From positions 138,924 through 202,923 of the IMG/VR virus record IMGVR_UViG_3300036772_000425: a DNA stretch of 64,000 nucleotides; one strand, written 5' to 3'. The DNA comes from a virus. Each line of letters begins with the position of its first letter. The first letter of the stretch is position 1. This document shows, one piece after another, positions 3,628 through 60,900 of this stretch. The translations under genes were made by a program, and so were the position numbers. The notes under the pieces were generated by a model, which saw nothing but the letters and a program-made list of their open reading frames with translations, was not told the origin of the DNA and did no database searches.

Positions 3628-4244
3628 GTGGGGGCTTGGGTGGGCTTCCAGGGCCAACCCAGGTCCATGGACTCAGCCTTGGTGTGCCTGTCCCAGAGGA
3701 GCCAGGACCCGTCGTCCTGGCGAGCGTAGAGCTCGCCGTCGACCAACCGGAACTCAGTCCGGCAGTCCTCCGCGAGAAGCTCCAAATACTTCATGTACGC
3801 GGACTCCGACACCTTCCTCACCTCGTTCAGGTGCAGGGTGCCCAACGCTCGGGTCCGGACCCTCGGGCACGCTCCGCAGCATCCCGGGTTGGCCAGGCCC
3901 TTCCGGACATGGATGCACCCGTCCAGGAAGGCGCGCAGCACGTTGAGGTGTGGGACCGATCGACCGCCGATGCTCCAGCGGAAGCTGGGCAGGGCCCGAA
4001 ACTTCCGGACGCTGGGCATCGCACGGTCGTACAGCCTGGTGCTCTTGCACTCGTAGATGCTGAAGCGCTCGCCGGTGTGGGTGTCCTTCACCTCCCAGTG
4101 GGTGGAGACCTTGTTGTCGGACGTCGGCGGCAGGGACGGGCCGAAGGCCGAGCGCAGCTCGGCGTAGCTCGCGTCGAAGTCGCACACGTGGCCGCCCGTG
4201 CGGGGCCTGTCGCTGTCACCGCGGATGAACCTTGCCATGATCAT
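3624..4244 (-). CDS. hypothetical Cys-rich protein (206 aa), possible nuclease/zinc-binding
   Basis: ORF track; CCGAC and scattered Cys/His; promoter motif immediately upstream. Confidence 0.55.
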   Translation of the reverse strand: MIMARFIRGDSDRPRTGGHVCDFDASYAELRSAFGPSLPPTSDNKVSTHWEVKDTHTGERFSIYECKSTRLYDRAMPSVRKFRALPSFRWSIGGRSVPHLNVLRAFLDGCIHVRKGLANPGCCGACPRVRTRALGTLHLNEVRKVSESAYMKYLELLAEDCRTEFRLVDGELYARQDDGSWLLWDRHTKAESMDLGWPWKPTQAPT

Positions 4245-4280: not shown

Positions 4281-4281
4281 G

Positions 4282-4356
4282 GTGGGCACGCTCGGGTTCG
4301 AACCGAGACACTCCCGCTTATGAGGCGGGTGCTCTGACCGGTTGAGCTACGGGCCC
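4282..4356 (-). tRNA. tRNA-Met: tRNA-Met (anticodon CAU; could be Ile2 if lysidinylated)
   Basis: minus-strand cloverleaf GGGCCCG-TA-GCTC-AACCGGTCA-GAGC-A-CCCGC-CTCATAA-GCGGG-AGTGT-CTCGG-TTCGAAC-CCGAG-CGTGCCC-A-CC; T-loop TTCGAAC; one C5-U68 acceptor mismatch. Confidence 0.75.
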
Positions 4357-6808: not shown

Positions 6809-7603
6809 ATGAGCGGGATGCAGCTGAACGTGTCACGTGGTTTCGCGACCGGCACCATGATCAACACCATCAACGTGCCCGAGGCCCTGCGCGTCAAGCA
6901 CAGCAGCGGGATCGGGTGGTTGGACGATGCGCTGGGCGGGGAGGGCGGCTTCACCCCGACCACCACCATGATGCTGACGGGCGGCCCGGGCGCCGGTAAG
7001 AGCACCCTGCTGCGCCAGATGGCCGACACCATGACGGAGAAGGGCCACCTGGTGCTGTACAACACCGGTGAGGAGAGCCTGTTCCAGGCCAAGATGTCCT
7101 GCGAGCGCCTGGCCCTGAAGAACGACTTCCCGGTGGGTGAGGAGACCATGCTGCCCCGCCTGCTGGAGTTCATGGACAAGGTGAAGGCCGACCCGAAGCT
7201 GCGGGGCCGCCAGCTGGTGCTGCTGCAGGACTCCCTGCAGACCCTGGACGACGGCAAGTACGTGGACTCCGTGGGGCGCAGCCGGGGCACCACCAGCAAG
7301 ACGCCCACCTACTGCGCGGAGATGCTGGTGGACTGGATGCAGAAGAACTTCGGCATCTGCGTCTTCATCGGCCAGTGCACCAAGGGCGGCGAGTTCGCAG
7401 GGCAGAACACCATCAAGCACGCCATCGACACCCATGCACACATGTATTATGATGAGAAAGAGAAATCGGACACCTACGGCAACCTCCTCTTCGAGGTGCA
7501 GAAGAACCGGTGGGGCTGCAACGGGAAGACCTTCATCCTCGGCCTCACGAAAACGGGTATCGAGGAACGTGGAAGCTTCAAGAAGGCGGGTGCGGTAGAG
7601 TAA
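6809..7603 (+). CDS. RecA-superfamily ATPase (RadA/Sms- or DnaB-C-terminal-like)
   Basis: GIGWLDDALGGEGGF...TGGPGAGKSTLLRQMA Walker A and RadA-like context; AGGAGG SD 8 nt upstream. Confidence 0.8.
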   Translation: MSGMQLNVSRGFATGTMINTINVPEALRVKHSSGIGWLDDALGGEGGFTPTTTMMLTGGPGAGKSTLLRQMADTMTEKGHLVLYNTGEESLFQAKMSCERLALKNDFPVGEETMLPRLLEFMDKVKADPKLRGRQLVLLQDSLQTLDDGKYVDSVGRSRGTTSKTPTYCAEMLVDWMQKNFGICVFIGQCTKGGEFAGQNTIKHAIDTHAHMYYDEKEKSDTYGNLLFEVQKNRWGCNGKTFILGLTKTGIEERGSFKKAGAVE

Positions 7604-20950: not shown

Positions 20951-21273
20951 GCGACATCAGGCTCCTGCATGCCCGGACCCGGCAGCGGATACCCGTGCCG
21001 GACGGCCTGGTCGCCCTGCCGGGTGACCTGTGCACGTTCGCCACGCTGGTCGACAACGCATGCATGCTGGTTCCGTGCGACTTTCGCCAGCGCTGGGACC
21101 ACACGCAGGCACGGACGGTGAAGGTGCCGGAGCTTGCCCTGCTCATCCACCTCGATTTCTTCCCGAAGCAGGCCTACAGGACGTTCGTCACCGTCCTGGT
21201 CGACGGCCGGATCATGCGCTTCATGTCGCTGGTACCCATCGTCATCCACTGGAAGAGCCTGGTGGCCGCATGA
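20947..21273 (+). CDS. PGD-motif small beta-barrel paralog
   Basis: GTGA overlap; ALPGDLCTFATL... Confidence 0.5.
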   Translation: MSDIRLLHARTRQRIPVPDGLVALPGDLCTFATLVDNACMLVPCDFRQRWDHTQARTVKVPELALLIHLDFFPKQAYRTFVTVLVDGRIMRFMSLVPIVIHWKSLVAA

Positions 21274-21560
21274 GGCCAGTACCGGGCGACCTGTTCCACT
21301 TCGTCATCACGGAGGCACGCAAGCAGAAGCTGCGGTCCACCCTGCAGGGCGCGCCCGAGGCGATCGAACGGATCATGCAGGTCAGGGCGCAGGGCTTCGG
21401 ACCCTTCGGCCCGGCCGCGGGCTCGGGCGTGCAGCACCTGGTCATCAGCATCGACGACACCGGGATCACCTGGTTCAACGTGTACGGCGTCCACACCCTG
21501 CGCTGGGCCGACCACCGGACCCTGACGGAGCAGTGGATCTACGACGTGGAGCGCCTGTGA
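21270..21560 (+). CDS. PGD-motif small beta-barrel paralog
   Basis: MRPVPGDLFHFV... Confidence 0.5.
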   Translation: MRPVPGDLFHFVITEARKQKLRSTLQGAPEAIERIMQVRAQGFGPFGPAAGSGVQHLVISIDDTGITWFNVYGVHTLRWADHRTLTEQWIYDVERL

Positions 21561-21820
21561 TCCGGCCGGGCGACATGGTGGTGTGGCGAGGGGCCCTATC
21601 GTTCGCGGTGGCACCCGAGGCGATCACCTGGTCGGAGCACGCCGGGCGCTTCGTACCGATCGGGTCGAGGATGTGCCACATGGTGGTGTCGGTGGTCGAC
21701 GGCGTGATCACATGGATCAACCCCGAAGGCTGCCACTCGTACGATACCTCCCGTCGCATGTCGAGCGACCCGTACCCGGTCGCCGTCCTGCCGGCCAGCG
21801 GCCCACCGGAGGTCGCATGA
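21557..21820 (+). CDS. PGD-motif small beta-barrel paralog
   Basis: GTGA overlap; VIRPGDMVVWRG... Confidence 0.5.
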   Translation: MIRPGDMVVWRGALSFAVAPEAITWSEHAGRFVPIGSRMCHMVVSVVDGVITWINPEGCHSYDTSRRMSSDPYPVAVLPASGPPEVA

Positions 21821-22116
21821 GGTGCTTTCAATACCCAAGTGAGGAAGCCACTGTCACAAGCGCGGTAGAATTCGTGTGGGCCGCAGACCGGTGGTACCAC
21901 CTCCAACCGGGCGACATGCTGTTCGTCGCCGCGTGCAACTTTTGGGTGCAATCGCACGGGTGCATGGTCGGTCCCATCGACCTGAGGAACGATGAGGAGC
22001 ACATCCAGTTCAAGGAGCCGATCGCGCTACTGGTGGTGGGCTGCACCAGGGCGTACGACCTGCAGAAGCGTGTCCTCGTCATGGTCCCGCACCGCGGGGT
22101 CTGGGCGCTGCCATGA
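21817..22116 (+). CDS. PGD-motif small beta-barrel paralog
   Basis: ATGA overlap; LQPGDMLFVAAC... Confidence 0.5.
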   Translation: MRCFQYPSEEATVTSAVEFVWAADRWYHLQPGDMLFVAACNFWVQSHGCMVGPIDLRNDEEHIQFKEPIALLVVGCTRAYDLQKRVLVMVPHRGVWALP

Positions 22117-22322
22117 TCGTACCTGGTGACATGGTGGTGACGAAGGAGCACCATGTCCTGTTCGTGGACAAGGAACGCATCGGACCGCAGGTCACGGTGC
22201 ACAACGTGGTCCGGACCCTGCTGGTGATCGGCACCAAGCTGTACAGAACCCAGCTGCTGGTGCTGGTCCCGGGCATGGGTGTGATGCGGATCCGGATGAA
22301 AGACGTGGAACGCGCACCATGA
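22113..22322 (+). CDS. PGD-motif small beta-barrel paralog (short, 69 aa)
   Basis: MIVPGDMVVTKE... Confidence 0.5.
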   Translation: MIVPGDMVVTKEHHVLFVDKERIGPQVTVHNVVRTLLVIGTKLYRTQLLVLVPGMGVMRIRMKDVERAP

Positions 22323-22609
22323 ACACCCTCATCAAACCTGGGACCTTGATCAGGGGCGGTGCATTGGTGCGCAAGCGCCGGGCCGGGCGTGACCTGGTGC
22401 AATCCTCAGCGATCGTCAGCGACCTGCTGGACGATGAGGGCACCACGGTGCTGGGCGTCAACATCATCGGGTACCTGGGCAAGGATGAGGTCGGAATGGT
22501 CATCACCCGTCTGCACCGTCCAAAAATGCACGGCCTGCTGCTGGTCCTGAGCCGCCATGGATTGGGCTGGACCCGAGAGGATTGGATCCGACGTGCTGGC
22601 ACCCGGTGA
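22319..22609 (+). CDS. PG-motif small beta-barrel paralog
   Basis: MNTLIKPGTLIRGG... Confidence 0.5.
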   Translation: MNTLIKPGTLIRGGALVRKRRAGRDLVQSSAIVSDLLDDEGTTVLGVNIIGYLGKDEVGMVITRLHRPKMHGLLLVLSRHGLGWTREDWIRRAGTR

Positions 22610-22838
22610 CATGGTCGTCCATCAGGTCCACAGCTTCATCGACCTGAAGCACGAGGCCGCCGACGGATCCACCCTCGGCTTCGCGCGCCTGCCGAAACGC
22701 GAGGTGTGCCTGGTGATAGCCTGGCGCTGGACGCAGCAGGACTACGGACCGCAGGTCATGCTGATCGGTTCGAGCGGTGTGATGGGCTGGTGCAGCGCGG
22801 ACGCAGTGTGCCCTCTCGAGATCATGAGGGGAGCATGA
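22593..22838 (+). CDS. PGD-motif small beta-barrel paralog (GTG start; ATG alternative at 22557)
   Basis: VLAPGDMVVHQV... Confidence 0.4.
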   Translation: MLAPGDMVVHQVHSFIDLKHEAADGSTLGFARLPKREVCLVIAWRWTQQDYGPQVMLIGSSGVMGWCSADAVCPLEIMRGA

Positions 22839-23098
22839 ACATCCGCCCGGGCGACCTGGTCCGCAGCCCGGAATCTTGCTCGGCGCCTATGTACGATGAC
22901 CCTGACAACGCCATGATCTACGACTGCAACCGGTTCGGCAACTTCGGCCAGGGCGCGAGCAGCAGGATCATGTACGGTCAGCTGGGGATCGCGGTCGACG
23001 TCAGGTTGGCGGGCAGGGAAAACCGCCCGGTGATCATGGTGATGAACCATCGGCTGCGTGTGGGCTGGGTCAAGGCAGAACTACTGCACCATGCTTGA
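22835..23098 (+). CDS. PGD-motif small beta-barrel paralog
   Basis: ATGA overlap; MNIRPGDLVRSP... Confidence 0.5.
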   Translation: MNIRPGDLVRSPESCSAPMYDDPDNAMIYDCNRFGNFGQGASSRIMYGQLGIAVDVRLAGRENRPVIMVMNHRLRVGWVKAELLHHA

Positions 23099-23387
23099 GC
23101 GGGAGGAGCACGTGGGAAGGCGTGAGATCGGTCCAGGCACCCTCGTCAGGACGCGGAGCAAGGACCACCGGATCCACATGTCCAGGACGCCGTACCTCGC
23201 CGGACCCGCGGAGATCGTCATCCTGGATCCTTACATCATGCCGACCGACATCATGATGGTGCTGGCGCTGCACCAGTCGAAGGGCATGCACGGTGAGAAG
23301 CACCAGAAGCGTCCCATCGTGGCCCTGATCCTGCTGCGGGGCGCGGTCGGATGGGTGGAGCTGAAGCGCTTGAAACCGGTGGAGTGA
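23091..23387 (+). CDS. PG-motif small beta-barrel paralog
   Basis: REIGPGTLVRTR... Confidence 0.5.
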   Translation: MLEREEHVGRREIGPGTLVRTRSKDHRIHMSRTPYLAGPAEIVILDPYIMPTDIMMVLALHQSKGMHGEKHQKRPIVALILLRGAVGWVELKRLKPVE

Positions 23388-23707
23388 TGCAGCGCAGGAA
23401 GAAGAGCTCCGCACGGATCGACCTCAATCCAGGCGACCTGATCAGGTGGTCACTGGGTTGGGACCCGTACTGCCTTGTCCTGCACCCGGACATCAAGGAG
23501 GCAAACACGTGTCCGGTGGGCTACCGCACCTGCAAACGAGGTGCCAAGGAGAACGCGCTGGGCTCTCAGCAGCTGGGCCTGGTGATCTCGCTGGACCGTG
23601 CCTGGGCTCGGGGACCCAACGTGCCGGTGTGCGCCCTGGTGTGGGTCAGGGGCGGGCTGATGGGCTGGTGCCGGGCACAGGAACTGAGGGCATGCGATCC
23701 GAGGTAG
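23387..23707 (+). CDS. PGD-motif small beta-barrel paralog
   Basis: TGATG overlap; IDLNPGDLIRWS... Confidence 0.5.
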   Translation: MQRRKKSSARIDLNPGDLIRWSLGWDPYCLVLHPDIKEANTCPVGYRTCKRGAKENALGSQQLGLVISLDRAWARGPNVPVCALVWVRGGLMGWCRAQELRACDPR

Positions 23708-24021
23708 CGCAGCTGGGCTTCGGCGACGTGGTGATGTGGCGCTGGAACTGGGAGAACTTCGTCCTGTGGGAGAGGGTGACCGTCACGGACCCGGCGGCCG
23801 TGCCGACGTACGAACGCGGTCCGATCAGGTTCCACGGTGCGCACCTGAAGGTCAGCACCGCATCGGCCCTCATCGTGTGCAGGGTGGTGACGCTGGACAG
23901 CGACGCTCCGTACGTCAAGGCGAACCCGCTGGCGTTCGTCATGGTGCTGGGCCACGGTGTCGCTGGGTGGTGCAGATACGACGATCTGGTGCCGGTGAAA
24001 AACTGCAGCACCATGTGTTAA
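23692..24021 (+). CDS. GD-motif small beta-barrel paralog
   Basis: QLGFGDVVMWRW... Confidence 0.45.
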   Translation: MRSEVAQLGFGDVVMWRWNWENFVLWERVTVTDPAAVPTYERGPIRFHGAHLKVSTASALIVCRVVTLDSDAPYVKANPLAFVMVLGHGVAGWCRYDDLVPVKNCSTMC

Positions 24022-24030
24022 CCTCCACCC

Positions 24031-24282
24031 ATGGCCAAGGAACGTATCCCCGCAAAGCTCCAGCCCAGCGTCGCCTCCACCGTGAAGGCAGCCTGGAAGA
24101 AGTCCAACTCTCACCTGTCCCTGAAGGCATGGGCCCGGTCCGGCTCCTCGGGCCTGGGTGAGGCCTCGGCAACCTGGTTCGCGAACAAGCGCTTGAACAC
24201 CTCCAAGCCCCCGCTGGGCCTCGGGAAGACGCGCCGGAAGAAGAGCAAGAACGGCGCACCCCTGAAGGACGCCAAGAAGTAG
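24031..24282 (+). CDS. small Lys-rich basic protein, putative nucleic-acid binding (83 aa)
   Basis: C-terminus GKTRRKKSKNGAPLKDAKK. Confidence 0.5.
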   Translation: MAKERIPAKLQPSVASTVKAAWKKSNSHLSLKAWARSGSSGLGEASATWFANKRLNTSKPPLGLGKTRRKKSKNGAPLKDAKK

Positions 24283-24293
24283 GACGCCGGCAG

Positions 24294-24689
24294 ATGGATG
24301 GGTTCATCACCACGTTGGGTCAGGTCGTCATCGATGCCGATTCGAAGGTGAACGTGGTGGTGGATCCGGCCATCGTGGACCTCGCGAGGGCCCTGCTGCC
24401 CAGGGCCTGGGTCCCGAACCGGCAGCGCTTCGCGCCCCACATCACGGTGGTCCGGGATGAGGAGCTGACCGTCATTCCGGCCCGGATCCCGGACGTTGTC
24501 ACCTTCATGTACGACCCATGCCCGGTGGAAGGCGAGGTCTACTGGTGGCTGCGCGTCCATTCGCCGGAACTGGTGGAGCTCAGGCGCGCCCTCGGGTTGC
24601 CCGATGGTTCCAGCATGTCGCGGCCACCGGACGGTGAACGGTGCTTCCACATCACCATCGGCAACAAGAAGCACCGTGTTCCCGGGTGA
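24294..24689 (+). CDS. 2H phosphoesterase-like protein (Acb1/LigT-like candidate, 131 aa)
   Basis: two H-x-T-x motifs (APHITVV and CFHITIG) at the spacing typical of the 2H superfamily. Confidence 0.45.
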   Translation: MDGFITTLGQVVIDADSKVNVVVDPAIVDLARALLPRAWVPNRQRFAPHITVVRDEELTVIPARIPDVVTFMYDPCPVEGEVYWWLRVHSPELVELRRALGLPDGSSMSRPPDGERCFHITIGNKKHRVPG

Positions 24690-24963
24690 CATGGTGATGG
24701 CTGCTTTCCCGGGAGCACAGCTGCACCCAAGCTGCGAGCAGGACACGTTGGGAAGATCCTACATGACAGGGCCGGGAACTGACATGGGCCGTCAGGTCGG
24801 GCTGTTGGTGGGCTACGACCCGAGCAGTTCCATCACCACTGTGCTGGTGGTTGACCAGGTCATGTACGTACATGCAGACAACCTGCTTCCGTACCCGGAC
24901 ATGCACCCAGGTACGGCACGGCGGTACCACAAGGATCACAGGTGGGACATTGAACACGGTTGA
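24676..24963 (+). CDS. PGD-motif small beta-barrel paralog (GTG start)
   Basis: VFPGDMVMAAFPG...TVLVVDQ. Confidence 0.45.
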   Translation: MFPGDMVMAAFPGAQLHPSCEQDTLGRSYMTGPGTDMGRQVGLLVGYDPSSSITTVLVVDQVMYVHADNLLPYPDMHPGTARRYHKDHRWDIEHG

Positions 24964-25038
24964 TTTCCTGCTCCGTGAGGCGCTCGTCCTGGGCCTTGCT
25001 GTCTCCAGCGTCATGGTCCTGTGTGCCCTTGTCTCCTA

Positions 25039-25053
25039 CTCCCGCTTCGGGAG
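25039..25053 (+). terminator. short hairpin in 120-nt intergenic gap (weak terminator or regulatory hairpin)
   Basis: CTCCCG-ctt-CGGGAG. Confidence 0.25.
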
Positions 25054-25082
25054 CTGAGTTGAGCAGCGGCGCAGGACCCACC

Positions 25083-25379
25083 GTGCATTTTCGACCGGGT
25101 CAGCTGGTCATGCAGTGCAGGGATGAAACACGTGCACCACGCAGGGTCGTGCTGTGGCCCAGCCTTGACCTGGGCCCGGGTCCTCCGGAGGACAAAGGAG
25201 CTGGGAATTGGCCCAGGATGACAGGTAGCATGGACGTAGTCCCACGCTGCAAAGCGATCATGCTGGTGATGGCGGTGGTGATGTGTCCTACGATCAGCGA
25301 GTACTCCTTCGTGCTGATCATGGATGATGATGGCATCATCGCATGGACGTGGAACAACATGCTGGAACCTGTGCCGTGA
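25083..25379 (+). CDS. PG-motif small beta-barrel paralog (GTG start)
   Basis: VHFRPGQLVMQCRD... Confidence 0.45.
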   Translation: MHFRPGQLVMQCRDETRAPRRVVLWPSLDLGPGPPEDKGAGNWPRMTGSMDVVPRCKAIMLVMAVVMCPTISEYSFVLIMDDDGIIAWTWNNMLEPVP

Positions 25380-25654
25380 TGGTGGGCACCCTGCGAACGG
25401 TGTTCAAGGGAGCAAGGTTGTACAGGACTCTCGTGCCAGCGAAGTGCGAGGGTGGGTTCCTGCTGCAGCACCTGCGCCACCACCCTGACGAAGATCGGGT
25501 CGGTTCCGAGCAGATGCTCGTCCTGTGCATCATCGGCTCGAGCTCGACACCCAACGAGATCGCGGGCCTCCTGAGCCCGCAGGGCGAGGTGGTGTGGTCG
25601 TTCCTGTACCACGTTCGATCGTTCTCGTACGACACCCACTCGGGTCCGTTCTGA
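25379..25654 (+). CDS. small beta-barrel paralog (divergent)
   Basis: stop-start overlap; MVGTLRTVFKGARLYRTLV...MLVLCIIG. Confidence 0.45.
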   Translation: MVGTLRTVFKGARLYRTLVPAKCEGGFLLQHLRHHPDEDRVGSEQMLVLCIIGSSSTPNEIAGLLSPQGEVVWSFLYHVRSFSYDTHSGPF

Positions 25655-36216: not shown

Positions 36217-36837
36217 ATGGGCCAACGTGGACTGCTCGGAAGCTTGGTGATCGCGTTGGTGGTCGGCTGCTCCTGGACACCCCACGAACCCACGCAGCAT
36301 GCGCTGCTGAAGACCCACCACGTTCTTCGCCTGCACGGGGACGACACCTTCACCGGGCCTGAGCGTGAGATGGTGCAGGAAGCCGCGGACGACGTGTTCA
36401 TCCAGACGTCAGGCCTCCTGCAGGTCATCGTGAACTTCGATTTCGATTTCGACAGGTTGGGCCTGGACGCCTGGCTCACCCGCACCAACCTGCTGGTCCG
36501 GACACCGAAGGATGCCTCGTACGTGGTCTCACGCGAACGGACAGGGAAGGTCATGCTCGGGATGGTGGTGGGGGTGAACCTGCAGGACTACGATCAGACC
36601 GCGCCGATGCAGGTTCACCTGATCGCCGACAGGTTGACGGATCGGAAGGTCTTCATCCAGGTCGCTGAGCACGAGTTCTACCATGCCTTCGGCCTGAACC
36701 ACGTCAAGGATCCGCACAGCGTGCTGTACCCAGAGGTGTTCCTGCAGGCGCCTCGTACCTGCATCAGCGAGGCAGACGCAGCAGAGATCTGCAGGGTCTA
36801 CGGGTGTTGGACAGGCGACCTCAACACCTGCACCTGA
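36217..36837 (+). CDS. secreted zinc metalloprotease lipoprotein (metzincin-like, 206 aa)
   Basis: signal/lipobox LVIALVVGCS; HEFYHAFGLNH (HExxHxxGxxH). Confidence 0.75.
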   Translation: MGQRGLLGSLVIALVVGCSWTPHEPTQHALLKTHHVLRLHGDDTFTGPEREMVQEAADDVFIQTSGLLQVIVNFDFDFDRLGLDAWLTRTNLLVRTPKDASYVVSRERTGKVMLGMVVGVNLQDYDQTAPMQVHLIADRLTDRKVFIQVAEHEFYHAFGLNHVKDPHSVLYPEVFLQAPRTCISEADAAEICRVYGCWTGDLNTCT

Positions 36838-38694: not shown

Positions 38695-38906
38695 GCGTTC
38701 CGGAAATCTTCTGCTGCATCGCAGCCGTGTTCGACATCATGATCTTCGTCTGGTTGGTGGGCACCTGGTTCTTCGAGGGCCACCACAAGCAGTGCAAGGT
38801 CGATGTGATCGCAACCTTCACCTGCGCCGAGTGCAAGAAGGAATTCGACGTAGAGACTGAGGTCGATTGCTCCGCATGTGCAGGGGGCCACGTCGAGGAA
38901 TCATGA
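38691..38906 (+). CDS. membrane protein with zinc-ribbon (71 aa)
   Basis: GTGA overlap; TM segment then CAEC...CSAC. Confidence 0.45.
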   Translation: MSVPEIFCCIAAVFDIMIFVWLVGTWFFEGHHKQCKVDVIATFTCAECKKEFDVETEVDCSACAGGHVEES

Positions 38907-39721
38907 CAGATCGGACCATCCTGATCGGCGACCTCCACGGCTGCGCCGACGAGGCGGAAGCGCTCCTCCGGAAGTTGCAGCCCACGGCGGCCGACTGGAT
39001 CGTCTGGTTGGGAGATTACGTCGATCGGGGCCCGAACAGCGTGGGCTGCGTGGACCTGGTCCGCAGGCGGGAACAGGTGCAGGGCCGCTGCGCCGGCATC
39101 CTTGGAAATCATGAAGAAAGGATGCTAGAGCATGAACAACGTGCCATGGAGCTGGGCCGTGAGCCTGAGATGCCCATGTCGCATGCCTTGACCCGTGCAC
39201 AGCTGCGGGACGAGCACTACGACTGGTTCAGGCAGCTCCCTCTCTTCCTGCGGATCCCTGAGCACAACGCGGTCGCGGTCCATGCCGGTGTCTTCCCAGG
39301 CCTGCCCATCGAACAGCAGACGCAGCGGACCCTGCTCCATGTCCAGATGCTGAAACCGTACGATGCAGAGGGCCGAGAGCTGTACAAGGACGGAAAACGA
39401 CACGATGCATCGTGCTGGGTCAGCAAGGTGCCCGCGGGTGAGGAGCACCTGTGGCGGTTCTGGACGCACTTCTACGAAGGTCCGGAAACGATCGTCTTCG
39501 GCCACAGCGTGTTCGACCGGCCCCTGATCACCCAGAACACGTTCGGGATCGACGGCGGGGTGCCCTTCGGCCTGCAGCTCCATGCGTTGGTCCTGCCCGA
39601 ACGCCGGATCGTCACCGTGAACTCTCCGAAGGACTACAGCAGGGCGACCCGCGGTAGCCGGAAGGATCCGATCCGGAACAAGCGGTTCTGGGTGCACGGC
39701 GACGTCCACACCTTCTCGTGA
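38903..39721 (+). CDS. Ser/Thr protein phosphatase, PPP family (lambda phosphatase/ApaH-like)
   Basis: ATGA overlap; metallophosphoesterase motifs GDLHG, GDYVDRG, GNHE. Confidence 0.8.
   Translation: MTDRTILIGDLHGCADEAEALLRKLQPTAADWIVWLGDYVDRGPNSVGCVDLVRRREQVQGRCAGILGNHEERMLEHEQRAMELGREPEMPMSHALTRAQLRDEHYDWFRQLPLFLRIPEHNAVAVHAGVFPGLPIEQQTQRTLLHVQMLKPYDAEGRELYKDGKRHDASCWVSKVPAGEEHLWRFWTHFYEGPETIVFGHSVFDRPLITQNTFGIDGGVPFGLQLHALVLPERRIVTVNSPKDYSRATRGSRKDPIRNKRFWVHGDVHTFS

Positions 39722-42729: not shown

Positions 42730-42733
<4 letters not shown>
42344..42733 (-). CDS. membrane protein (129 aa)
   Basis: ATGA overlap with GroEL stop; CWILLLLSVVLGSVLRLPVLGILTISV TM segments. Confidence 0.5.
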
Positions 42734-44385
<1,652 letters not shown>

Positions 44386-44416
44386 GCAAGCATACTAATG
44401 CAGAACGGGACGGTGT

Positions 44417-44674
44417 TCAGGCATCCTTGGTGACACGCAGCGGTACCGGCAGCCCCCGACGCCATGCCACCGCGACCAGGCCCAACCGGTAGTCCTCCAC
44501 CAGCGCTGTCAGGACAGCACGCTGCTGCGGATCCTGTGCCTGAGACAGGTAGATCAGCAGCTTCCGTTCCGTGAAATCGATCACGTTCGTGGGTTCGGTG
44601 GTACCGCAGTGCAGCTGGAACTCGGTGCACCTCTCGGTGCTGCGCGGGAACTGAGCTGCGTTGCGGGTCGCCAT
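44417..44674 (-). CDS. hypothetical protein (about 85 aa) in GroES position but not GroES-like
   Basis: internal Met; N-terminal 59 aa of track ORF are Arg-rich low complexity. Confidence 0.35.
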   Translation of the reverse strand: MATRNAAQFPRSTERCTEFQLHCGTTEPTNVIDFTERKLLIYLSQAQDPQQRAVLTALVEDYRLGLVAVAWRRGLPVPLRVTKDA

Positions 44675-44685
44675 CGCAAGCATAG

Positions 44686-44877
44686 CTAGGTGCCTGGACG
44701 ACCTTCCCGCTGGACGCGTCTCCCGGTCCTGTACCAGGGAACGAGCGCGGCAACGACCGCGCCGATGGCGCAACCGATCAGCAGCACGCTCGTGCCATCC
44801 TGTACCATGTTCATAAGTACCGCTTCGCTCAGGTCTTGTATCCCTTCCCAAGCACCTGTTTCCGAAGGGCCTGCCAT
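44686..44877 (-). CDS. possible small membrane protein (63 aa)
   Basis: ORF track; overlaps neighbour, weak. Confidence 0.25.
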   Translation of the reverse strand: MAGPSETGAWEGIQDLSEAVLMNMVQDGTSVLLIGCAIGAVVAALVPWYRTGRRVQREGRPGT

Positions 44878-45146
44878 CGTTTGAAGCTGCGATGACCGGA
44901 AGAATTGCGAGCCTCGATGATCTTGTCTGCGCGCCGCAACGACCTGAAATGCTTCCTGACCTCTGAGATTGAATGCATGCTCAGGTTGGGATAGTTCCCA
45001 CGAACTGTTGGAATTCCTTGCTGAGCTAACATCCGATACAACTCATATTCATGTTCTCGAGCAGATCGAGAGAGTTCAACTTCGTCCGGGCTTCTTTCGG
45101 CAGGCGCAACCTCGTCCTGTTTCTCGGCGACGGGTTCTGCCTTCAC
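44829..45146 (-). CDS. hypothetical basic protein (105 aa)
   Basis: ATGA overlap with AAA+ ATPase stop. Confidence 0.5.
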   Translation of the reverse strand: MKAEPVAEKQDEVAPAERSPDEVELSRSAREHEYELYRMLAQQGIPTVRGNYPNLSMHSISEVRKHFRSLRRADKIIEARNSSGHRSFKRWQALRKQVLGKGYKT

Positions 45147-46525
45147 CCGTCGCCGGCGAGAGGGACCGGTTCGGTGTCAGGGGCATCGTCGTCCAACAGA
45201 TCGCCGATGGGCACCGAGGCGGTCGCTGCAGGAACAGCTCCGGAAGCGACAGCGGCCATCGCTTCCAGTTCACGTGCCCGTTCCAGCAAGACCATCATCC
45301 GGTTGATGTCACGATGATCTTCATCATCGTCACCGGAGAGCTCGTTGACCCTCTCCGTCAGCTCGACCATCGATCGTGAAGCTTCATCAGGGTCCATGAA
45401 CTTCCGACGCTTCACGTACTCGTTGATGAAAGCAATGGGCCAGTCCTTGACCAGCTCGAAAGCATCATCGTACTCGTCAAGGACATGGTGCACCACCTCA
45501 GCGTCCATCTTGTCGATGCAGACCAGTTCATCGATCCGGCCCGGTCGCTTCAGCGCAGTCTCCAACCGACCGCGGTTGTTGACGGTGGTGAAGATCAGCT
45601 TCACCTTCTCCTGGAAGAACTCCATGGTTTCCAGGAGGTCGCCCTGCGCATGGGCCCGATCGAAGTCGTCCATGATGACCACGTCAGGTTCGAAGATGTT
45701 GATAGCCTCGAACAGGGTCCCGTTGTCCAGACTCTGGAGGTCTGAGATCCGGATCCGGAAGCTCCGGAGGCCCATCAGCTCCACGATGGTCCGGGCCAGG
45801 GTCGATTTACCGGTCCCGGGCGGACCGTAGAACATCACGGACCTGCTGACGCCCTCAGCCAGTGGTCGCTTCAGGTACTCTGCGTAGCTGACGGCGCGGG
45901 CGGAGAGCTTCGACTGGAAATCATCGTCGATCTCGAAGATGATGTGCTCCTCGGCACGGGACGTGAACATGCCCGACCGATCGCTCTTCCGCATCAACAA
46001 CGATTTTCCAGAAAACTGCTCCCACAGCTGGGCCTTGATGTAGGCCCGGGCTGCGTCCAGGTGTTGAGCGTCCACGTAGATCCGTTCCACGTTCTGCTGG
46101 CGCCCACGGTAGGTCCAGCCGCACCGGATCCCACCGGGCAGGGTGCAGATCCGGATGAAGGTATGCTCTTCCGAGGTCTTGAAGCGCTCGTACGGATGAC
46201 GGACGAGGACGCTGAGCAAGGTTTGGGTGAAATCTGAGCTGTATGCCTCGCACCACTCACTGGTGGCGAAGTAGTCCTCCGACCACACCTCGGAATCCTC
46301 GACCATGATCTTTCCCATGCCGAAGATCGACTGGGCTCCCGCCCACCAGGTCGGCTTCTCCAGGAAGGGCGACATGGCACCGAACAGTTCGGTGCCAAGG
46401 ACGAACAACCGTTTCACGCGGGTGCTGCTCAGGTACAGCTGCACCTGTCGCAGGAAAGGCGCTTCAGTGTTCACCATGAGGTGAGGATCCTGGTTCGGAT
46501 CCATTGGAACTCGATTCTTCTTCAT
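45143..46525 (-). CDS. AAA+ ATPase (460 aa)
   Basis: Walker A FYGPPGTGKSTLARTIV, Walker B VVIMDDFDRA, sensor/Arg finger region LKRPGRIDE; large N-terminal non-ATPase domain. Confidence 0.85.
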   Translation of the reverse strand: MKKNRVPMDPNQDPHLMVNTEAPFLRQVQLYLSSTRVKRLFVLGTELFGAMSPFLEKPTWWAGAQSIFGMGKIMVEDSEVWSEDYFATSEWCEAYSSDFTQTLLSVLVRHPYERFKTSEEHTFIRICTLPGGIRCGWTYRGRQQNVERIYVDAQHLDAARAYIKAQLWEQFSGKSLLMRKSDRSGMFTSRAEEHIIFEIDDDFQSKLSARAVSYAEYLKRPLAEGVSRSVMFYGPPGTGKSTLARTIVELMGLRSFRIRISDLQSLDNGTLFEAINIFEPDVVIMDDFDRAHAQGDLLETMEFFQEKVKLIFTTVNNRGRLETALKRPGRIDELVCIDKMDAEVVHHVLDEYDDAFELVKDWPIAFINEYVKRRKFMDPDEASRSMVELTERVNELSGDDDEDHRDINRMMVLLERARELEAMAAVASGAVPAATASVPIGDLLDDDAPDTEPVPLAGDG

Positions 46526-46557
46526 CCCTTGCCTTTCGGGCAGTTGGCGACCGTGAC

Positions 46558-47238
46558 CTAGAAATCGATCGGTTGGGCATCGTACGATGCCGCACGACCC
46601 AACGAGAACTCACCGTTGCTCCTGTCGCACAGGAGCTCGACAGACTGTTCGATGATCCCTTGCCGCCGTGCAGCGAACTGCAGGCTGCGGCTCGCGGCCC
46701 ACAGGACACGTGGGTTGGGCATCTCCCCCACACGCTTCTGGCACCTGAAGAAACCCTTCTTGGCGTCCTTCACCATCCACCATCCGCCGGTGTGGTCCTG
46801 AGATTCGTATCCCTGCTTGAGGAAATCGTCCACTCCTTGGCGCAACGGTAGCGGGACGGTGAGCCACAGTTTCTCATGCTTCACGCATGTCACCACGTAG
46901 TCGATGAAATCCTTCCAGGCCCGGTGCTGGCGGTCCCACTCCCTCTCGGGATCCTCGTAGAACCCGATGCAGGATTCCATGAAGACCTTCGGCCCGCACA
47001 CGATACCAACCTCGATCCCTTCCGGGAAGGGACTGTCAGCCCTATGTGACTCATTGCGCATGTGAAGGACATGGAGGATGGGTCGTCCGCAGCAGGCACA
47101 CCTGCTGTTCCCGTAGTGGAAACCGCTGATGGTCCATGACCCAGCCTCGATCAGGGATCGAAAGTTCTTTCCAGAACCTGTGTAGTGCTTGCCCGCCGCC
47201 GCGGCGACCAGCACGTCATGCTGCTGCTTGGACTCCAT
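46558..47238 (-). CDS. hypothetical Cys/His-rich protein (226 aa)
   Basis: ORF track; CACCGRP, C..C motifs. Confidence 0.55.
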   Translation of the reverse strand: MESKQQHDVLVAAAAGKHYTGSGKNFRSLIEAGSWTISGFHYGNSRCACCGRPILHVLHMRNESHRADSPFPEGIEVGIVCGPKVFMESCIGFYEDPEREWDRQHRAWKDFIDYVVTCVKHEKLWLTVPLPLRQGVDDFLKQGYESQDHTGGWWMVKDAKKGFFRCQKRVGEMPNPRVLWAASRSLQFAARRQGIIEQSVELLCDRSNGEFSLGRAASYDAQPIDF

Positions 47239-47243
47239 GTTCT

Positions 47244-47978
47244 TTACCTCGTCTCGAAGGCGAGCGCCAACTGCAGGCCCTCACTGTTGCACGGGTGTCC
47301 CTCAGAGTACCAATACTCAATGCGGCCGCGGTTGGACACGGTGACGATCGATGATGACAAGGTGCCCGACCCACCATCGGGTTCGTGCGCGCATACCGAG
47401 TGTCGGGTACCCAGGTCATGGCCGTGCGATGCCAGGAGCTCGTAGAGCCTGTCCACGATGGGATCGATCCCATCGCTTTCAGAGACTGCACCGGCGGCGC
47501 GCCACTGCGTGTCCCAGGCCTTCTGTGAATCCGGATCGAACCGACGGTTGGTGATCACGTGGGTGCCCGGATGCAACTCCTCCTTGTACCGGTTGTCGCT
47601 CATGATGAAGCGCTCCATCCTGCACGGCATGCCGTAGATCAGCTCGAACTTGCCGAACTCCTTGGCCCCCAGGCTCGCGCAGTAGTTCTGGACTCCGTAC
47701 ACGGTGCCGATGCTGAGCACGTCGGTGATCAGTTTGCCGCGGGAGCGTTCGCCGGGCGGCGAGCTCCAATCATCCTCGACCACGTTGGTCAGGGCAGCGA
47801 AGAACCCATCCCGATTGATCGCGAACCACGTACCGTCGGCGTCCAGATCCCACGGTCTGGCGATCCCATCGACCAGGGTGGGTCGACCCGTCCGCCTGCC
47901 GAACCGTTCATCACGGTTCCCAGCGACGACGAGCGGGTACCCAGGGACGATATCGTTCAGCACGATCAGTGTGCACAT
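47244..47978 (-). CDS. TANGO2/NRDE-family protein (DUF833)
   Basis: N-terminal MCTLIV...VVAGNRDE hallmark of NRDE/TANGO2 family. Confidence 0.75.
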   Translation of the reverse strand: MCTLIVLNDIVPGYPLVVAGNRDERFGRRTGRPTLVDGIARPWDLDADGTWFAINRDGFFAALTNVVEDDWSSPPGERSRGKLITDVLSIGTVYGVQNYCASLGAKEFGKFELIYGMPCRMERFIMSDNRYKEELHPGTHVITNRRFDPDSQKAWDTQWRAAGAVSESDGIDPIVDRLYELLASHGHDLGTRHSVCAHEPDGGSGTLSSSIVTVSNRGRIEYWYSEGHPCNSEGLQLALAFETR

Positions 47979-47998
47979 GGATCACCCGTCCTCATTCC

Positions 47999-48178
47999 TT
48001 GCACAGGCACCGCCGGACAAAGATGCCCCAGAACAGGAGGACGGTGACGATGGACAGCTGGACGACGGGTCCGAACACGTCGTACGCCACGATGCTGGCG
48101 ACGGCGAGGAACGCCGCACCGCCCCACATCAGCGCCTCTGCCTGCTCGAACGTCAGCACCCGAAACCTCATGCTGTTC
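47999..48178 (-). CDS. small membrane protein (59 aa)
   Basis: manual translation MRFRVLTFEQAEALMWGGAAFLAVASIVAYDVFGPVVQLSIVTVLLFWGIFVRRCLCKE; below track cutoff. Confidence 0.3.
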
Positions 48179-48368
48179 CTCCTCGTTCTTCCAGATGTTT
48201 CAGGATGACCTTCAGCTGCTCGTGCGCCGGGTTGTGCGCCACCTCGAACTTCTCGGTGAAGCCCATGAGCACGTAGATCCGATCGATCCCACCTGCGAAC
48301 GCGTCCATCTCTGCCAGGGCCATCCTCAGCTGCGTCCGGGTGAATGCAATGCGACGTTCAGGTGTCAT
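48168..48368 (-). CDS. hypothetical protein (66 aa)
   Basis: ORF track; overlaps neighbours. Confidence 0.4.
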   Translation of the reverse strand: MTPERRIAFTRTQLRMALAEMDAFAGGIDRIYVLMGFTEKFEVAHNPAHEQLKVILKHLEERGGTA

Positions 48369-49302
48369 ACGCCTCCATCAACCGCCTGCCGAGCCTCTTC
48401 AGGTACCGTGGACCGTACTTCGGGTTGCCTTGAGCCTCCAGGTCCCGTTCCAGGAACTTGGGCAGGACCTCATCCTGGTGCCTGCATGAGGCGATACCCC
48501 AGGCGACGGCCGCAACGGAGTCAGTGTCACCGCCCCATTCGATCACCTTCCTCATGATGCCCATGAGGGACGTTTCCTGCCGCAGCAAGGTACACACTGC
48601 CCAGGCGGTGTTCATGCCCACGTCGTACCCACCTTCCTTGCTCCGATCCACCCGGCCCTCCCAGGGGGTGCTCAGGAATTCGAGCCCATGGAGGTGTTGG
48701 TTCATCCAACCCAGGCACTCCGAGAATTCGAGCGATTCGTAGAGTGCAAAGTGGCTCAGCATGGCCACGATGATGGCGCTCTCGCAGCCTTCCTGGGTGT
48801 TGTGCGTCACCGCAGCCTGCTCACGGGCCGCAGTGATCACCATGTTGGGTGAGAACAGGACGCCGAGCGGGACCGCGCGCATGGCGGCACCGTTCTTCGT
48901 GGAATTCGGGATGATCCTGCGGCGCATGTCCTCGTGCGAGGTGGACTCCTCCAGGATCTTCTGGAACCCTCGGCTGTACCCGTCGCGCGGATCCCGCTTG
49001 AAGGCGTTGAAGAAGTGCGGATAGTAGTTCTCCTTCTGCAGGAAGTACGGGTACGAATGCCTGTGCGTCTTGGTCCCCGAGCTCAGCAACAGGAGGTCAG
49101 CGATGGCCAAACTCATCTGGCAATCGTCTGTGTACATTCCGGGTCGAAGCTTCAAGTGTGTTGGATGTTGTTGGTACGAATCAAAACGTTCGACAGCTGC
49201 GAAAAGCTTTGGGTGTTCTTCACGCTTCACGTACTCAACGGCTGACGCAAAAGCGTCAGCCTGAGCGATCCTGAGCAGCATGTTGTCGTTTGGGTTCTTC
49301 AT
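48358..49302 (-). CDS. ADP-ribosylglycohydrolase (ARH/DraG family)
   Basis: N-terminal LLRIAQADAFASAVEYV and C-terminal GGDTDSVAAVAWGIA motifs typical of ARH fold. Confidence 0.8.
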   Translation of the reverse strand: MKNPNDNMLLRIAQADAFASAVEYVKREEHPKLFAAVERFDSYQQHPTHLKLRPGMYTDDCQMSLAIADLLLLSSGTKTHRHSYPYFLQKENYYPHFFNAFKRDPRDGYSRGFQKILEESTSHEDMRRRIIPNSTKNGAAMRAVPLGVLFSPNMVITAAREQAAVTHNTQEGCESAIIVAMLSHFALYESLEFSECLGWMNQHLHGLEFLSTPWEGRVDRSKEGGYDVGMNTAWAVCTLLRQETSLMGIMRKVIEWGGDTDSVAAVAWGIASCRHQDEVLPKFLERDLEAQGNPKYGPRYLKRLGRRLMEAYDT

Positions 49303-49314
49303 CTAATGCTCCAT

Positions 49315-57113: not shown

Positions 57114-57887
57114 ATGTCTCAACTCTGGTACGTGTACGTTGACTGGACTCTTGAAATCGATCCAAGACGATTTTATGTCGGAAAGGGCAACAGAGGTCGG
57201 GTGTATGCAACACAAAGTGGTGCACGAAATGCACTTCATGGTCATTTCGTGCGGAAATACGGCCTTCATCGAACAATCATGTTTGAAACACTGGATGAGC
57301 ACGAAGCCTATGCAGTAGAAAGGCACCTCATCAAACTCTACAAGACTTTCGCCCATGGCGGCGAAGGTTGGTTCGGTGCGAATCTTGACATGGGCGGAAT
57401 GGGTGGTGAATCCACTCCGAAATCACTTGAACATCGACAAAAGATTCGAGAGTTCATGAAGACAAGGGTTGGTTCTAAAAACTCTTTCTACGGGAAACGA
57501 CACGACCCTGGAACTATTCAAAAGATCAGAGAATCGATGCTCGGTGAGCTTGGACCATGCTTTGGTCGCACTGGTTCGGCACATCCCATGTTTGGGACAC
57601 ACCACTCCAAAGCAGCATTGAACAAGATGTCTGTCTCTCATCTCGGTAAGAGCTTGACACCCTCACACGTAGCAGCCATCAAACTTGGACACCAAAAAAG
57701 AAATGAGCAACGTCGTCAAAGGGATGCACAGCTCATCGAACTTGTGAATTCAGGATTGAGCGTGAAGAGCGCCGCGGCCCAACTTGGCGTCGGAGTCAAT
57801 ATCGTTTACGGAGCTTTCAACCGTCTACGATCGCTTCAAAAGTCCCAAAGTTCGGAACAAGTTCTTGTTGTAGCGAACGAAGGGTGA
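57114..57887 (+). CDS. GIY-YIG homing endonuclease with NUMOD3 repeats and C-terminal HTH (copy 2)
   Basis: MSQLWYVYVDW...FYVGKGNRGRV; repeats G.KHD/S..K.S; C-terminal SVKSAAAQLGVGVNIVY HTH. Confidence 0.8.
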   Translation: MSQLWYVYVDWTLEIDPRRFYVGKGNRGRVYATQSGARNALHGHFVRKYGLHRTIMFETLDEHEAYAVERHLIKLYKTFAHGGEGWFGANLDMGGMGGESTPKSLEHRQKIREFMKTRVGSKNSFYGKRHDPGTIQKIRESMLGELGPCFGRTGSAHPMFGTHHSKAALNKMSVSHLGKSLTPSHVAAIKLGHQKRNEQRRQRDAQLIELVNSGLSVKSAAAQLGVGVNIVYGAFNRLRSLQKSQSSEQVLVVANEG

Positions 57888-58400
57888 TGTTTGATCAGAG
57901 ATCAACGTCTCTATGTCTACCCACTTCACCACCCCAGCTTCATCAGTGTTGATTTCACCCTCAACCTGGCATGCGAATGTTGTGGTCGTGAACCCATCAT
58001 CATCCTGTTGTTCAAAAACCTGGTTGAGATGCACGGCAGTCAATCCAGTTTCTTCCTTGCATTCTCGAGCAGCGGCTTCTTCAGGTGTTTCTCCCGGATC
58101 TACTTTCCCACCAATCATGCCCCACAAGGTCGGATCGTCCTTGCGTGACACTGCCAGGACCTTGCCATCATCACGCAGGACAAGGCAGCATGCGGCATGG
58201 AGACCGCTCTGCAGGTCATGCGTACGATCGTTCGTCTCATCGTCCAGCAAGTTACCTCCAGATCCCTTGACGGGGGCGTCGTTCTGCAGGTAACCCATGG
58301 TGTACAGGTTACCGCCGTGCAGGTCCTTTCCGGCAGACCAAGGGTCCGCCCCGCCCAACACCTCCATCAGGTACCGTCGCAGTGCCGGAAGTCGCATCAT
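57825..58400 (-). CDS. NUDIX hydrolase
   Basis: Nudix box GGKVDPGETPEEAAARECKEETGL; start set to internal Met (ATGA overlap); 3' end overlaps convergent HEG by 63 nt. Confidence 0.7.
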   Translation of the reverse strand: MMRLPALRRYLMEVLGGADPWSAGKDLHGGNLYTMGYLQNDAPVKGSGGNLLDDETNDRTHDLQSGLHAACCLVLRDDGKVLAVSRKDDPTLWGMIGGKVDPGETPEEAAARECKEETGLTAVHLNQVFEQQDDDGFTTTTFACQVEGEINTDEAGVVKWVDIETLISDQTSPFVRYNKNLFRTLGLLKRS

Positions 58401-58402
58401 CG

Positions 58403-58753
58403 TCACCTGGAGCTGGGTTTCAATTCGTGGAACTTCGTGTTGAGGATGTTCCACAGGGTCTGCTCTGCTGCACTCCGGTCACCCTTGAAGTGGTTCATCA
58501 GGCCCGGGAACCGTTGGGCCGCGTACCTGACGACCTGCGCTCGGATCCCGGGCCACAGCGGATGACCGATCTCTGATTCCACGTCAGTCAACCAGGACTC
58601 AGCGAAGGATGTCGCCTCCGGGAAATCAGACGATCGCAGGCCGGTGAACGGCAGCTTGACGCCGGTCGCACGCTGCAACCTGCCCAGGAACCGATGGTCG
58701 AGCCTGAGCTCGACCATGTAGTCCCTGATCAACCGCCGCTCGACCAACCTCAC
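58403..58753 (-). CDS. hypothetical protein (116 aa)
   Basis: ATGA overlap with endolysin stop. Confidence 0.5.
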   Translation of the reverse strand: MRLVERRLIRDYMVELRLDHRFLGRLQRATGVKLPFTGLRSSDFPEATSFAESWLTDVESEIGHPLWPGIRAQVVRYAAQRFPGLMNHFKGDRSAAEQTLWNILNTKFHELKPSSR

Positions 58754-60694: not shown

Positions 60695-60900
60695 TCGGGC
60701 TTCGTGGCATGTTCCACGCACACGCAGTCATGGTCCACGACCTTCGGTACCGCGCCAGCAGCGCACTGCCGGGTCGCACAGTCCTGGGCGTTGCTGCATG
60801 CCACGAAGTACAGGACGATCGCCAGGATCAGGCCGAAGATGCCTCCGATGCCGTAGATGGCGAAATCGCCGTCCGATGAATCGACCATGTAATCAGACAT
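60691..60900 (-). CDS. small membrane protein (69 aa)
   Basis: ORF track; IGGIFGLILAIVLYFVAC TM. Confidence 0.45.
   Translation of the reverse strand: MSDYMVDSSDGDFAIYGIGGIFGLILAIVLYFVACSNAQDCATRQCAAGAVPKVVDHDCVCVEHATKPD

Follow-up and report, generated by a model that had tools for sequence, protein, structure and literature searches.

We analysed a 64,000-nucleotide stretch (hereafter the window) of the IMG/VR virus record IMGVR_UViG_3300036772_000425, covering positions 138,924 to 202,923 of that record, and within it a gene at 24294..24689 whose 131-residue product carries two H-x-T motifs. We found that this protein has the 2H fold and falls in the Pfam family PF22547 (2H-SAK, from 'Swiss Army Knife'), that it lies outside the family of the anti-CBASS protein Acb1 (CBASS: an antiphage signalling system based on cyclic oligonucleotides), and that its relatives are almost confined to jumbo and huge phages, where about 40% of the independent loci are inside same-strand arrays of tRNA genes and a few others directly follow the gene of a CCA-adding enzyme. 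We give about an even chance to the explanation we favour, namely that the protein is an enzyme which heals 2',3'-cyclic-phosphate ends of RNA, including tRNA, in the service of counter-defence. The gene and its elements are as follows.

24294..24689, + strand: 2H phosphoesterase gene, encoding a 131-residue, stand-alone, minimal protein of Pfam family PF22547 (2H-SAK)
24438..24455, + strand: proximal catalytic motif H49-I-T51-V-V-R54 (HxTxxR), read in the sequence as PH(49)ITVVR
24648..24671, + strand: distal catalytic motif H119-I-T121-I-G-N124-K-K126, read in the sequence as FH(119)ITIGNKK
24281..24284, + strand: AGGA, a possible ribosome-binding site inferred from the sequence, 9 nt 5' of the ATG and overlapping the stop codon of the preceding open reading frame (ORF)

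The 2H gene and its product

The ORF runs from ATG to TGA over 131 codons, and we regard it as a genuine gene because of its codon-position G+C pattern (0.85 at third and 0.44 at second positions; the window overall has 62.7% G+C). The preceding ORF, which encodes a basic protein of 83 residues, ends with a stop codon 11 nt before the start of the 2H gene. A promoter and terminator scan found no promoter-like site and no + strand terminator-like site in 23500-25500, and a Rfam scan near the gene added nothing. In the protein, H49 and H119 are 70 residues apart; the chain stops 12 residues past H119, which leaves 5 residues between the end of the distal motif and the C-terminus. An identical protein is recorded on a 340,433-bp contig, and the same region is present in a Logan assembly, with PF22547 as the precomputed JGI/Logan annotation. 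The phage collection contained no near-identical DNA. With a contig of at least 340 kb, the window phage itself looks huge.

Family membership, conservation and predicted fold

The protein matched PF22547 with 30.5 bits (gathering score 27; E 4.8e-7), and the match covered profile positions 34-121 of 124. Two further Pfam models were hit below threshold, i.e., PF13563 (2_5_RNA_ligase2; 21.1 vs 27 bits) and LigT_PEase (15.3 vs 23.3 bits), while PADLOC and NCBIfam (E<=0.01) gave no match. Using HMMER against 1.84 billion cluster representatives, we detected 253 relatives at E<=1e-3 (a count of clusters at 50% identity), nearly all of them 125-140 residues long. Conservation and Pfam membership were assessed on an alignment of 115 relatives, 91 of which matched PF22547 (E<=0.01). 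Across this alignment H49, W85 and H119 were invariant, and G9, P36, R54, F71, Y73, Y83, R97, G101, L102, F118, T121, N124 and K126 were conserved in at least 90% of the sequences; seven homologues at 50-65% identity to the window protein keep both motifs. The first-pass annotation, which was made without database searches, had pointed to the two H-x-T motifs (HITV and HITI) and had placed the protein in the 2H superfamily. Both statements are borne out by the invariance of the two histidines and by the above-threshold match to PF22547.

PF22547 is an existing but uncharacterised Pfam family with no solved structure, to which the window gene adds a member. Its name, 2H-SAK, presumably derives from multidomain RNA-repair proteins; the window protein, by contrast, stands alone, and fused domains were found in no relative that we checked, including the longer ones. 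The broad family alignment was too diverse for pattern scans. A scan of bacterial and archaeal genomes with two peptide patterns returned no relative, the patterns being too narrow to judge cellular homologues.

The structure that AlphaFold2 predicted from the 115-sequence alignment had a mean predicted local distance difference test score (pLDDT) of 95.2 and a predicted template modelling score (pTM) of 0.88. The model shows an internal duplication with the order beta-beta-alpha-beta-HxT: its first half comprises strands 5-13 and 19-22, helix 25-33 and strand 49-53, its second half strands 68-73 and 83-89, helix 91-99 and strand 118-124, and each HxT motif begins the last strand of its half. 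Going by the fold match, H49 and H119 are predicted to lie on opposite sides of a cleft, at a distance suited to catalysis. The protein is one of the smallest versions of the 2H fold. Sequence searches of the PDB, both with the protein and with the family profile, gave nothing meaningful, and a Foldseek search of the PDB gave nothing significant; the protein is therefore equally far from all 2H branches with solved structures. Against BFVD, Foldseek returned weak matches only, among which a protein named 'Swiss Army Knife 2H' ranked above Acb1. The model agrees with the pseudo-symmetric, two-lobed fold of the 2H superfamily, in which each HxT lies on a central beta strand; the two motifs, one per half, are flanked by hydrophobic residues.

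The protein is not a member of the Acb1 family

The first-pass annotation had read the protein as a candidate of the Acb1 type, and this reading did not survive comparison with Acb1 itself. The dedicated Pfam model, PF23474, was unmatched by the window protein even at E<=10 and by all 115 relatives at E<=0.01 (0/115), while T4 57B, taken as a positive control, scored 202.7 bits. BLASTP of the window protein against T4 Acb1 gave no meaningful match (E 0.22). When the family alignment was compared by hhalign with an alignment of 13 Acb1 sequences, the probability was 23.7% over 29 columns, and these columns paired the second helix-loop-HxT unit of the family with the first unit of Acb1; what was aligned is merely the repeat unit common to all 2H proteins.

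The differences extend to the parts of Acb1 that handle its ligand. In Acb1, which is represented by T4 gp57B and by the protein of Erwinia phage FBB1, Y12, W74, F107 and W147 stack on bases, E141 reads a base, and a C-terminal lid (residues 145-152, including W147) shuts over the ligand (Hobbs et al. 2022, PMC9117128). The number of residues after the second catalytic histidine has a median of 9 in the window family (range 3-18) and of 38 in Acb1 (33-41). As the family ends so soon past this histidine, the segment that bears E141 and the W147 lid in Acb1 is absent from it. Moreover, the residues at position +5 of the two motifs are both Tyr in Acb1 (HxTxxY), but Arg and Asn in the window family (HxTxxR and HxTxxN). 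The two do resemble each other in compact size and in the spacing of their histidines (69 residues in Acb1, 70 here). They differ in isoelectric point (pI), which is near-neutral to basic in the family (median 7.9) and acidic in Acb1 (5.8); this difference carries little weight, given that the window protein, with a pI of 6.05, is on the mildly acidic side too. For annotation, this means that a small phage protein should not be called Acb1 on the strength of two HxT motifs; Acb1 has a dedicated Pfam model, which here went unmatched.

Relatives are found in jumbo and huge phages

With the window protein as the query, tblastn against 50,697 phage records matched nothing but an uncultured phage of 595 kb and Bacillus phage G. 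With a more central family member as the query, 26 records were matched, all of 337-595 kb except one Klebsiella record of 86 kb, and every annotated match was a 'hypothetical protein'. These 26 records include RaK2-like phages (of Klebsiella, Salmonella and E. coli), Pectobacterium phage CBB, Ralstonia phage RsoM2USA, Agrobacterium phage Atu_ph07, Bacillus phage G and Vibrio phage 2.275.O, the cultured jumbo phages with homologues having genomes of 337-498 kb. The contigs of metagenomic relatives range from 25% to 63% G+C. Acb1, for comparison, was found in 1,486 records, and a sample of 60 of these consisted essentially of T4-like phages of about 160-250 kb.

Homologues in tRNA arrays and beside RNA-processing genes

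To describe the gene neighbourhoods of the family, we clustered the 2H proteins at <=85% identity, which gave 40 independent loci, and called tRNA genes in them with ARAGORN. A tRNA gene was present within 100 nt of the 2H gene in 11 of the 40 loci, within 600 nt in 14 and within 3 kb in 16. All of these tRNA genes share the strand of the 2H gene and stand in arrays of as many as 20, and in four loci (L031, L035, L044 and L054) they abut or overlap the ends of the 2H ORF. A homologue also sits within an array of 23 tRNA genes in the published 595-kb phage LR756511. The array-embedded homologues of L004, L010, L017 and L028 are 49-52% identical to the window protein, with none closer among the loci examined. 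Separately, the metagenomic tRNA array that holds the homologue of L028 also contains, at 3690-4050, a transfer-messenger RNA (tmRNA) with the tag peptide ANDNAFAMAA.

Further neighbours belong to RNA processing. In two loci (L006 and L007) the 2H gene overlaps by 4 nt with the end of the gene of a CCA-adding tRNA nucleotidyltransferase, the upstream proteins having CCA tRNA nucleotidyltransferase models as their best NCBIfam matches. The enzyme of L006 (6622-7941) is without an HD domain and that of L007 (6481-7995) has one; the HD domain of the E. coli CCA enzyme has been ascribed cyclic phosphodiesterase activity. Among cultured phages, RaK2 has a lysozyme gene, a tRNA nucleotidyltransferase gene 1.6 kb off and nudE near its homologue; Munch has an RNA ligase gene 2 kb upstream, a gene for a ribosome-associated inhibitor, and nucleotidyltransferase and NUDIX genes downstream; Atu_ph07 has a tRNA amidotransferase gene two genes off and a macro domain gene 5 kb off; and Vibrio phage 2.275.O has tRNA genes upstream and a tRNA nucleotidyltransferase gene 4 kb downstream. 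In RsoM2USA, a TROVE/Ro60-vWA protein (gp57; L136, 4394-5860) is encoded directly upstream of the 2H homologue. The corresponding upstream gene of Munch, gp210 (DUF2828/DUF7788), was considered as TROVE-like, for which neither BLASTP against the RsoM2USA TROVE protein nor a PDB sequence search gave support.

Other neighbours are more scattered. In Bacillus phage G, the homologue has a macro domain gene at a distance of 2.7 kb; a gene for elongation factor Ts (EF-Ts) abuts the 2H gene in L004 and L013 and is near it in L017; and a NUDIX gene adjoins the 2H gene in L051 and is 1.4 kb away from it in L050. Metallophosphoesterase genes recur near the homologues of L051 and L053. The closest high-G+C relatives (L001-L003) belong to a replication module that also includes an NAD-dependent ligase and an AAA_33/Zeta-type P-loop kinase. 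We found no synteny between the window and the homologue loci beyond the 2H gene, and the idea of a single conserved operon partner was rejected, as no neighbour family was seen in more than five loci.

A proposed role in healing RNA ends

Taken together, the Pfam family, the nearby genes for tRNAs, CCA-adding enzymes, RNA ligase and TROVE protein, and an earlier proposal for jumbo phages make the opening of cyclic RNA ends the most likely job of this protein. In that proposal, Iyer, Anantharaman, Krishnan, Burroughs and Aravind (2021, PMC7824862) suggest that 2H enzymes of jumbo phages clear 2',3'-cyclic ends for RNA ligases, with removal of signals as another possibility. The prediction covers the superfamily in general, and its example protein may be of another 2H family; the passages searched contained no description of tRNA-array embedding or of coupling to CCA-adding enzymes. 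A general role in jumbo phages has thus already been predicted, and the two associations reported here sharpen that prediction.

According to the explanation we favour, the gene of this huge phage encodes a stand-alone, minimal 2H-SAK phosphoesterase, which is predicted to be catalytically competent. H49 and H119 would supply the general acid and the general base for a phosphodiester beside a ribose hydroxyl, one histidine protonating the leaving ribose oxygen and the other activating water, by analogy with ThpR (PMC4201822), while the phosphate would be held by T51 and T121 and by the conserved R54, N124 and K126. The likeliest substrate would be the 2',3'-cyclic phosphate at RNA 3' ends, chiefly those of tRNAs cut by metal-independent host RNases in anti-phage defence. 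Its opening would be the first step of end healing, after which a phosphatase and a CCA-adding enzyme or RNA ligase, of phage or host origin, could restore the tRNA. We infer the substrate, the repair role and also that the window copy acts like its tRNA-linked relatives.

Known 2H enzymes offer two comparisons. The E. coli protein ThpR, formerly LigT, is a hydrolytic RNA 2',3'-cyclic phosphodiesterase that does not join ends, hence its renaming; its motifs are HxTxxF (proximal) and HxTxxR (distal), and the arginine of the latter holds the phosphate and is essential (PMC4201822). The nearly invariant HxTxxR motif of the window family may recall this arginine, yet it is the proximal and not the distal one. 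The window protein is, in addition, about 45 residues shorter than ThpR, and HxTxxF has no counterpart in the family, whose other +5 residue is Asn (distal HxTxGN). Models of the ThpR/LigT group matched it either below threshold (Pfam LigT_PEase and 2_5_RNA_ligase2) or not at all (NCBIfam). The second comparison is with the tRNA ligases of fungi (Trl1) and plants (AtRNL), whose 2H cyclic phosphodiesterase (CPD) modules follow the same logic as proposed here: they open the 2',3'-cyclic phosphate of tRNA in the first step of heal-and-seal repair (PMC7145591, PMC3964908). The CPD modules are fused to kinase and ligase in trifunctional enzymes, whereas the window protein stands alone, with any partners only loosely linked or host-supplied. 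No direct sequence or structure match between it and the CPD domains of Trl1 or AtRNL was seen.

Several observations weigh against this explanation. In about half of the homologue loci, the 2H gene is accompanied by nothing but small unknown genes. The link to heal-and-seal genes (RNA ligase, polynucleotide kinase (PNK) or CCA-adding enzyme) was seen for the homologues of L006, L007, RaK2, Munch and Vibrio 2.275.O, but not within the window, where no RNA ligase, PNK, CCA-adding enzyme, macro domain or Tpt1 was found among about 50 ORFs scanned. The window 2H gene is also 20 kb away from, and on the opposite strand to, the sole tRNA gene of the window:

4281-4356, - strand: tRNA-Met (CAT), called by ARAGORN and Rfam

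Next, the 11 loci with a tRNA gene within 100 nt compare with 6.3 expected for a random ORF of the same locus, i.e., the tRNA signal is one of array membership, not of position inside the array, and the few per cent that we would take as the genome-wide baseline for a random large-phage gene to fall in a tRNA array is a guess. Genuine Acb1 genes, moreover, also keep company with tRNA genes: in the IMG/VR loci of Acb1 (L055-L131), a tRNA cluster lies within 3 kb in 52 of 77, though within 100 nt in none (0/77). Finally, the arginine that follows the distal motif in ThpR is on the proximal motif here.

The closeness of Acb1 to tRNA genes reflects the conserved gene arrangement of T4, in which (L046, 70000-80000) 57B is 1.4 kb from the tRNA genes, with trna.2-4 and ipI between. 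Even so, because T4-type Acb1 is also found near tRNA clusters, a tRNA neighbourhood by itself does not speak against an anti-signalling role, and tRNA proximity, which we had considered as a discriminator from Acb1, was weakened by this control. Regions flanking tRNA genes may be general homes for counter-defence genes.

The cleavage of tRNAs is a common last-line defence of bacteria, to which large phages reply with tRNAs and repair enzymes of their own. Many jumbo phages encode an RNA ligase or a CCA-adding enzyme without any recognised phosphodiesterase for end healing. A role of this family in opening cyclic phosphates, if true, would fill that gap as well as account for one recurrent protein-coding gene inside phage tRNA arrays. 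Members of the family occur in phages that can be cultured (Klebsiella RaK2, Salmonella Munch, Agrobacterium Atu_ph07, Bacillus G and Ralstonia RsoM2USA), so that the question can be tested directly.

Alternative functions

An alternative, which we consider unlikely, is that the protein is a functional analogue of Acb1, i.e., a compact, lid-less 2H nuclease which degrades the cyclic oligonucleotide signals of CBASS or type III CRISPR in huge phages that do not have the T4-type Acb1. Such a function would fit the division between the two families, which do not overlap among the cultured-phage records listed (T4-like phages in the sampled Acb1 records, jumbo phages of at least 337 kb for the 2H family), and the proximity of T4-type Acb1 to tRNA clusters; base stacking could be provided by the conserved aromatic side chains of F71, Y73, Y83 and W85. 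It is opposed by the differences from Acb1 given above (PF23474 unmatched by the protein and its 115 relatives, an hhalign probability of 24%, the E141/W147 lid segment missing family-wide, and Arg and Asn rather than Tyr at the +5 positions), and it leaves unexplained why homologues are translationally coupled to CCA-adding enzymes and have RNA ligase and TROVE genes as neighbours. In its broader form, to which we assign a similarly low probability, the lid-less family of about 130 residues, often transcribed from inside tRNA arrays, would be a new class of counter-defence enzymes, the equivalent in huge phages of T4-type Acb1, but one that arose independently and grips its substrate in another way. 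The target would then be a small immune signal, a cyclic phosphate or cyclic oligonucleotide, e.g., the cyclic oligoadenylates (cAn) or oligoadenylates with a cyclic phosphate end (An>p) of type III CRISPR and CBASS, or the 2',3'-cyclic nucleoside monophosphates (2',3'-cNMPs) released by effectors that cleave tRNA or other RNA.

The first-pass annotation had also joined the 2H gene with an ADP-ribosylglycohydrolase (ARH) gene and a NUDIX gene of the window into a possible anti-defence toolkit. Both of the latter genes are real:

48358..49302, - strand: ARH (PF03747, E 3e-29), distantly related to ARH3, DraG and Tri1
57825..58454, - strand: NUDIX hydrolase (E 5e-23), closest to Ap4A hydrolase, RppH and MutT

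They lie, however, in other gene blocks of the opposite strand, at distances of 24 kb (ARH) and 33 kb (NUDIX) from the 2H gene, so that there is no toolkit operon in the window, and the idea of the three acting as a coordinated set against signals finds no support here. The nearest workable form of that idea is a cyclic phosphodiesterase for molecules derived from ADP-ribose, such as ADP-ribose 1'',2''-cyclic phosphate (Appr>p), which would act with macro domain proteins, NUDIX hydrolases and possibly ARH in a pathway of NAD+ and ADP-ribose. We regard this as rather improbable. The 2H cyclic phosphodiesterases of yeast and plants act on Appr>p (PMC4201822), and a link between 2H, macro and NUDIX enzymes in jumbo phages is drawn by Iyer et al. 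2021 (PMC7824862). The macro domain genes of Bacillus phage G and Atu_ph07, the NUDIX genes beside or near the homologues of L051, L050, RaK2 and Munch, and the ARH and NUDIX genes of the window itself would all accord with such a pathway. Yet these macro and NUDIX neighbours are few and equally compatible with RNA repair, Tpt1/KptA was seen in no locus examined, and the distance and strand of the window ARH and NUDIX genes count against a joint action. The window NUDIX protein, furthermore, resembles Ap4A hydrolase, RppH and MutT rather than ADP-ribose pyrophosphatases. Near the homologues elsewhere, NUDIX genes are found with CCA-adding enzymes, RNA ligase and tRNA genes, which points to RNA-end metabolism and not to the degradation of signals.

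Alternatively, and with an equally small probability in our estimate, the protein could serve in the maturation of tRNAs that the phage itself encodes, by trimming or opening 3' ends in transcripts of the arrays ahead of CCA addition, and have no part in repair after host attack. Given its same-strand position inside tRNA arrays, at times overlapping the flanking tRNA genes, the 2H gene probably shares one precursor transcript with the tRNAs, and this, together with the coupling to CCA-adding enzymes, would suit such a factor. The known 3' processing of bacterial tRNAs relies on metal-dependent enzymes whose products end in a 3'-OH, so tRNA maturation would produce no cyclic phosphate that needs opening; in addition, many homologues, the window copy included, are far from any tRNA gene.

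That the protein is a 2'-5' RNA ligase, as the JGI name of the identical protein (P0001; '2'-5' RNA ligase') and the sub-threshold match to PF13563 would have it, is very improbable, given that the name is historical, that the founding member, LigT, is a hydrolytic cyclic phosphodiesterase which does not join ends (PMC4201822), and that the LigT/ThpR models of Pfam and NCBIfam were unmatched at threshold.

Other genes in the window

Small co-directional ORFs without a Pfam match, more than 50 in all, form the run that holds the 2H gene. Part of this run (21270-26177, + strand) is a tandem series of about a dozen diverged ORFs of about 70-110 residues, which share the motifs 'PGD[LM]V' at the N-terminus and 'G..GW' at the C-terminus; few pairs among them are detectable by BLASTP, and none matches Pfam. 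The series is broken by the 2H gene and by the 83-residue ORF before it (24031-24282), whose product is rich in lysine and arginine.

The ARH gene is one of five recognised genes in a minus-strand block at 42730-50377, and the NUDIX gene lies beside that of a phage lysozyme. The remaining recognised genes of the window are listed here in order of position.

6809-7603, + strand: KaiC/RecA-like P-loop ATPase
36217-36837, + strand: protein with a matrixin-type metalloprotease motif
38867-39721, + strand: calcineurin-like metallophosphoesterase
42730-44385, - strand: GroEL-type chaperonin
45143-46525, - strand: AAA+ ATPase
47244-47978, - strand: TANGO2-like protein
49754-50377, - strand: protein with an MgsA C-terminal domain
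53763-54581, + strand: trypsin-like serine protease
58750-59916, - strand: phage lysozyme, beside the NUDIX gene
59882-60694, + strand: GIY-YIG/NUMOD3 homing-endonuclease-like ORF
60893-61873, - strand: 5'-3' exonuclease/flap endonuclease (FEN)

A further gene, at 30572-33235 (+ strand), encodes a protein of 887 residues with a major-vault-protein shoulder domain (101 bits) and matches to the Vault repeat and SPFH. In the phage collection, tblastn detected homologues of this vault-like protein only in the uncultured huge phages LR756500, LR756501 and LR756503 (462-735 kb).

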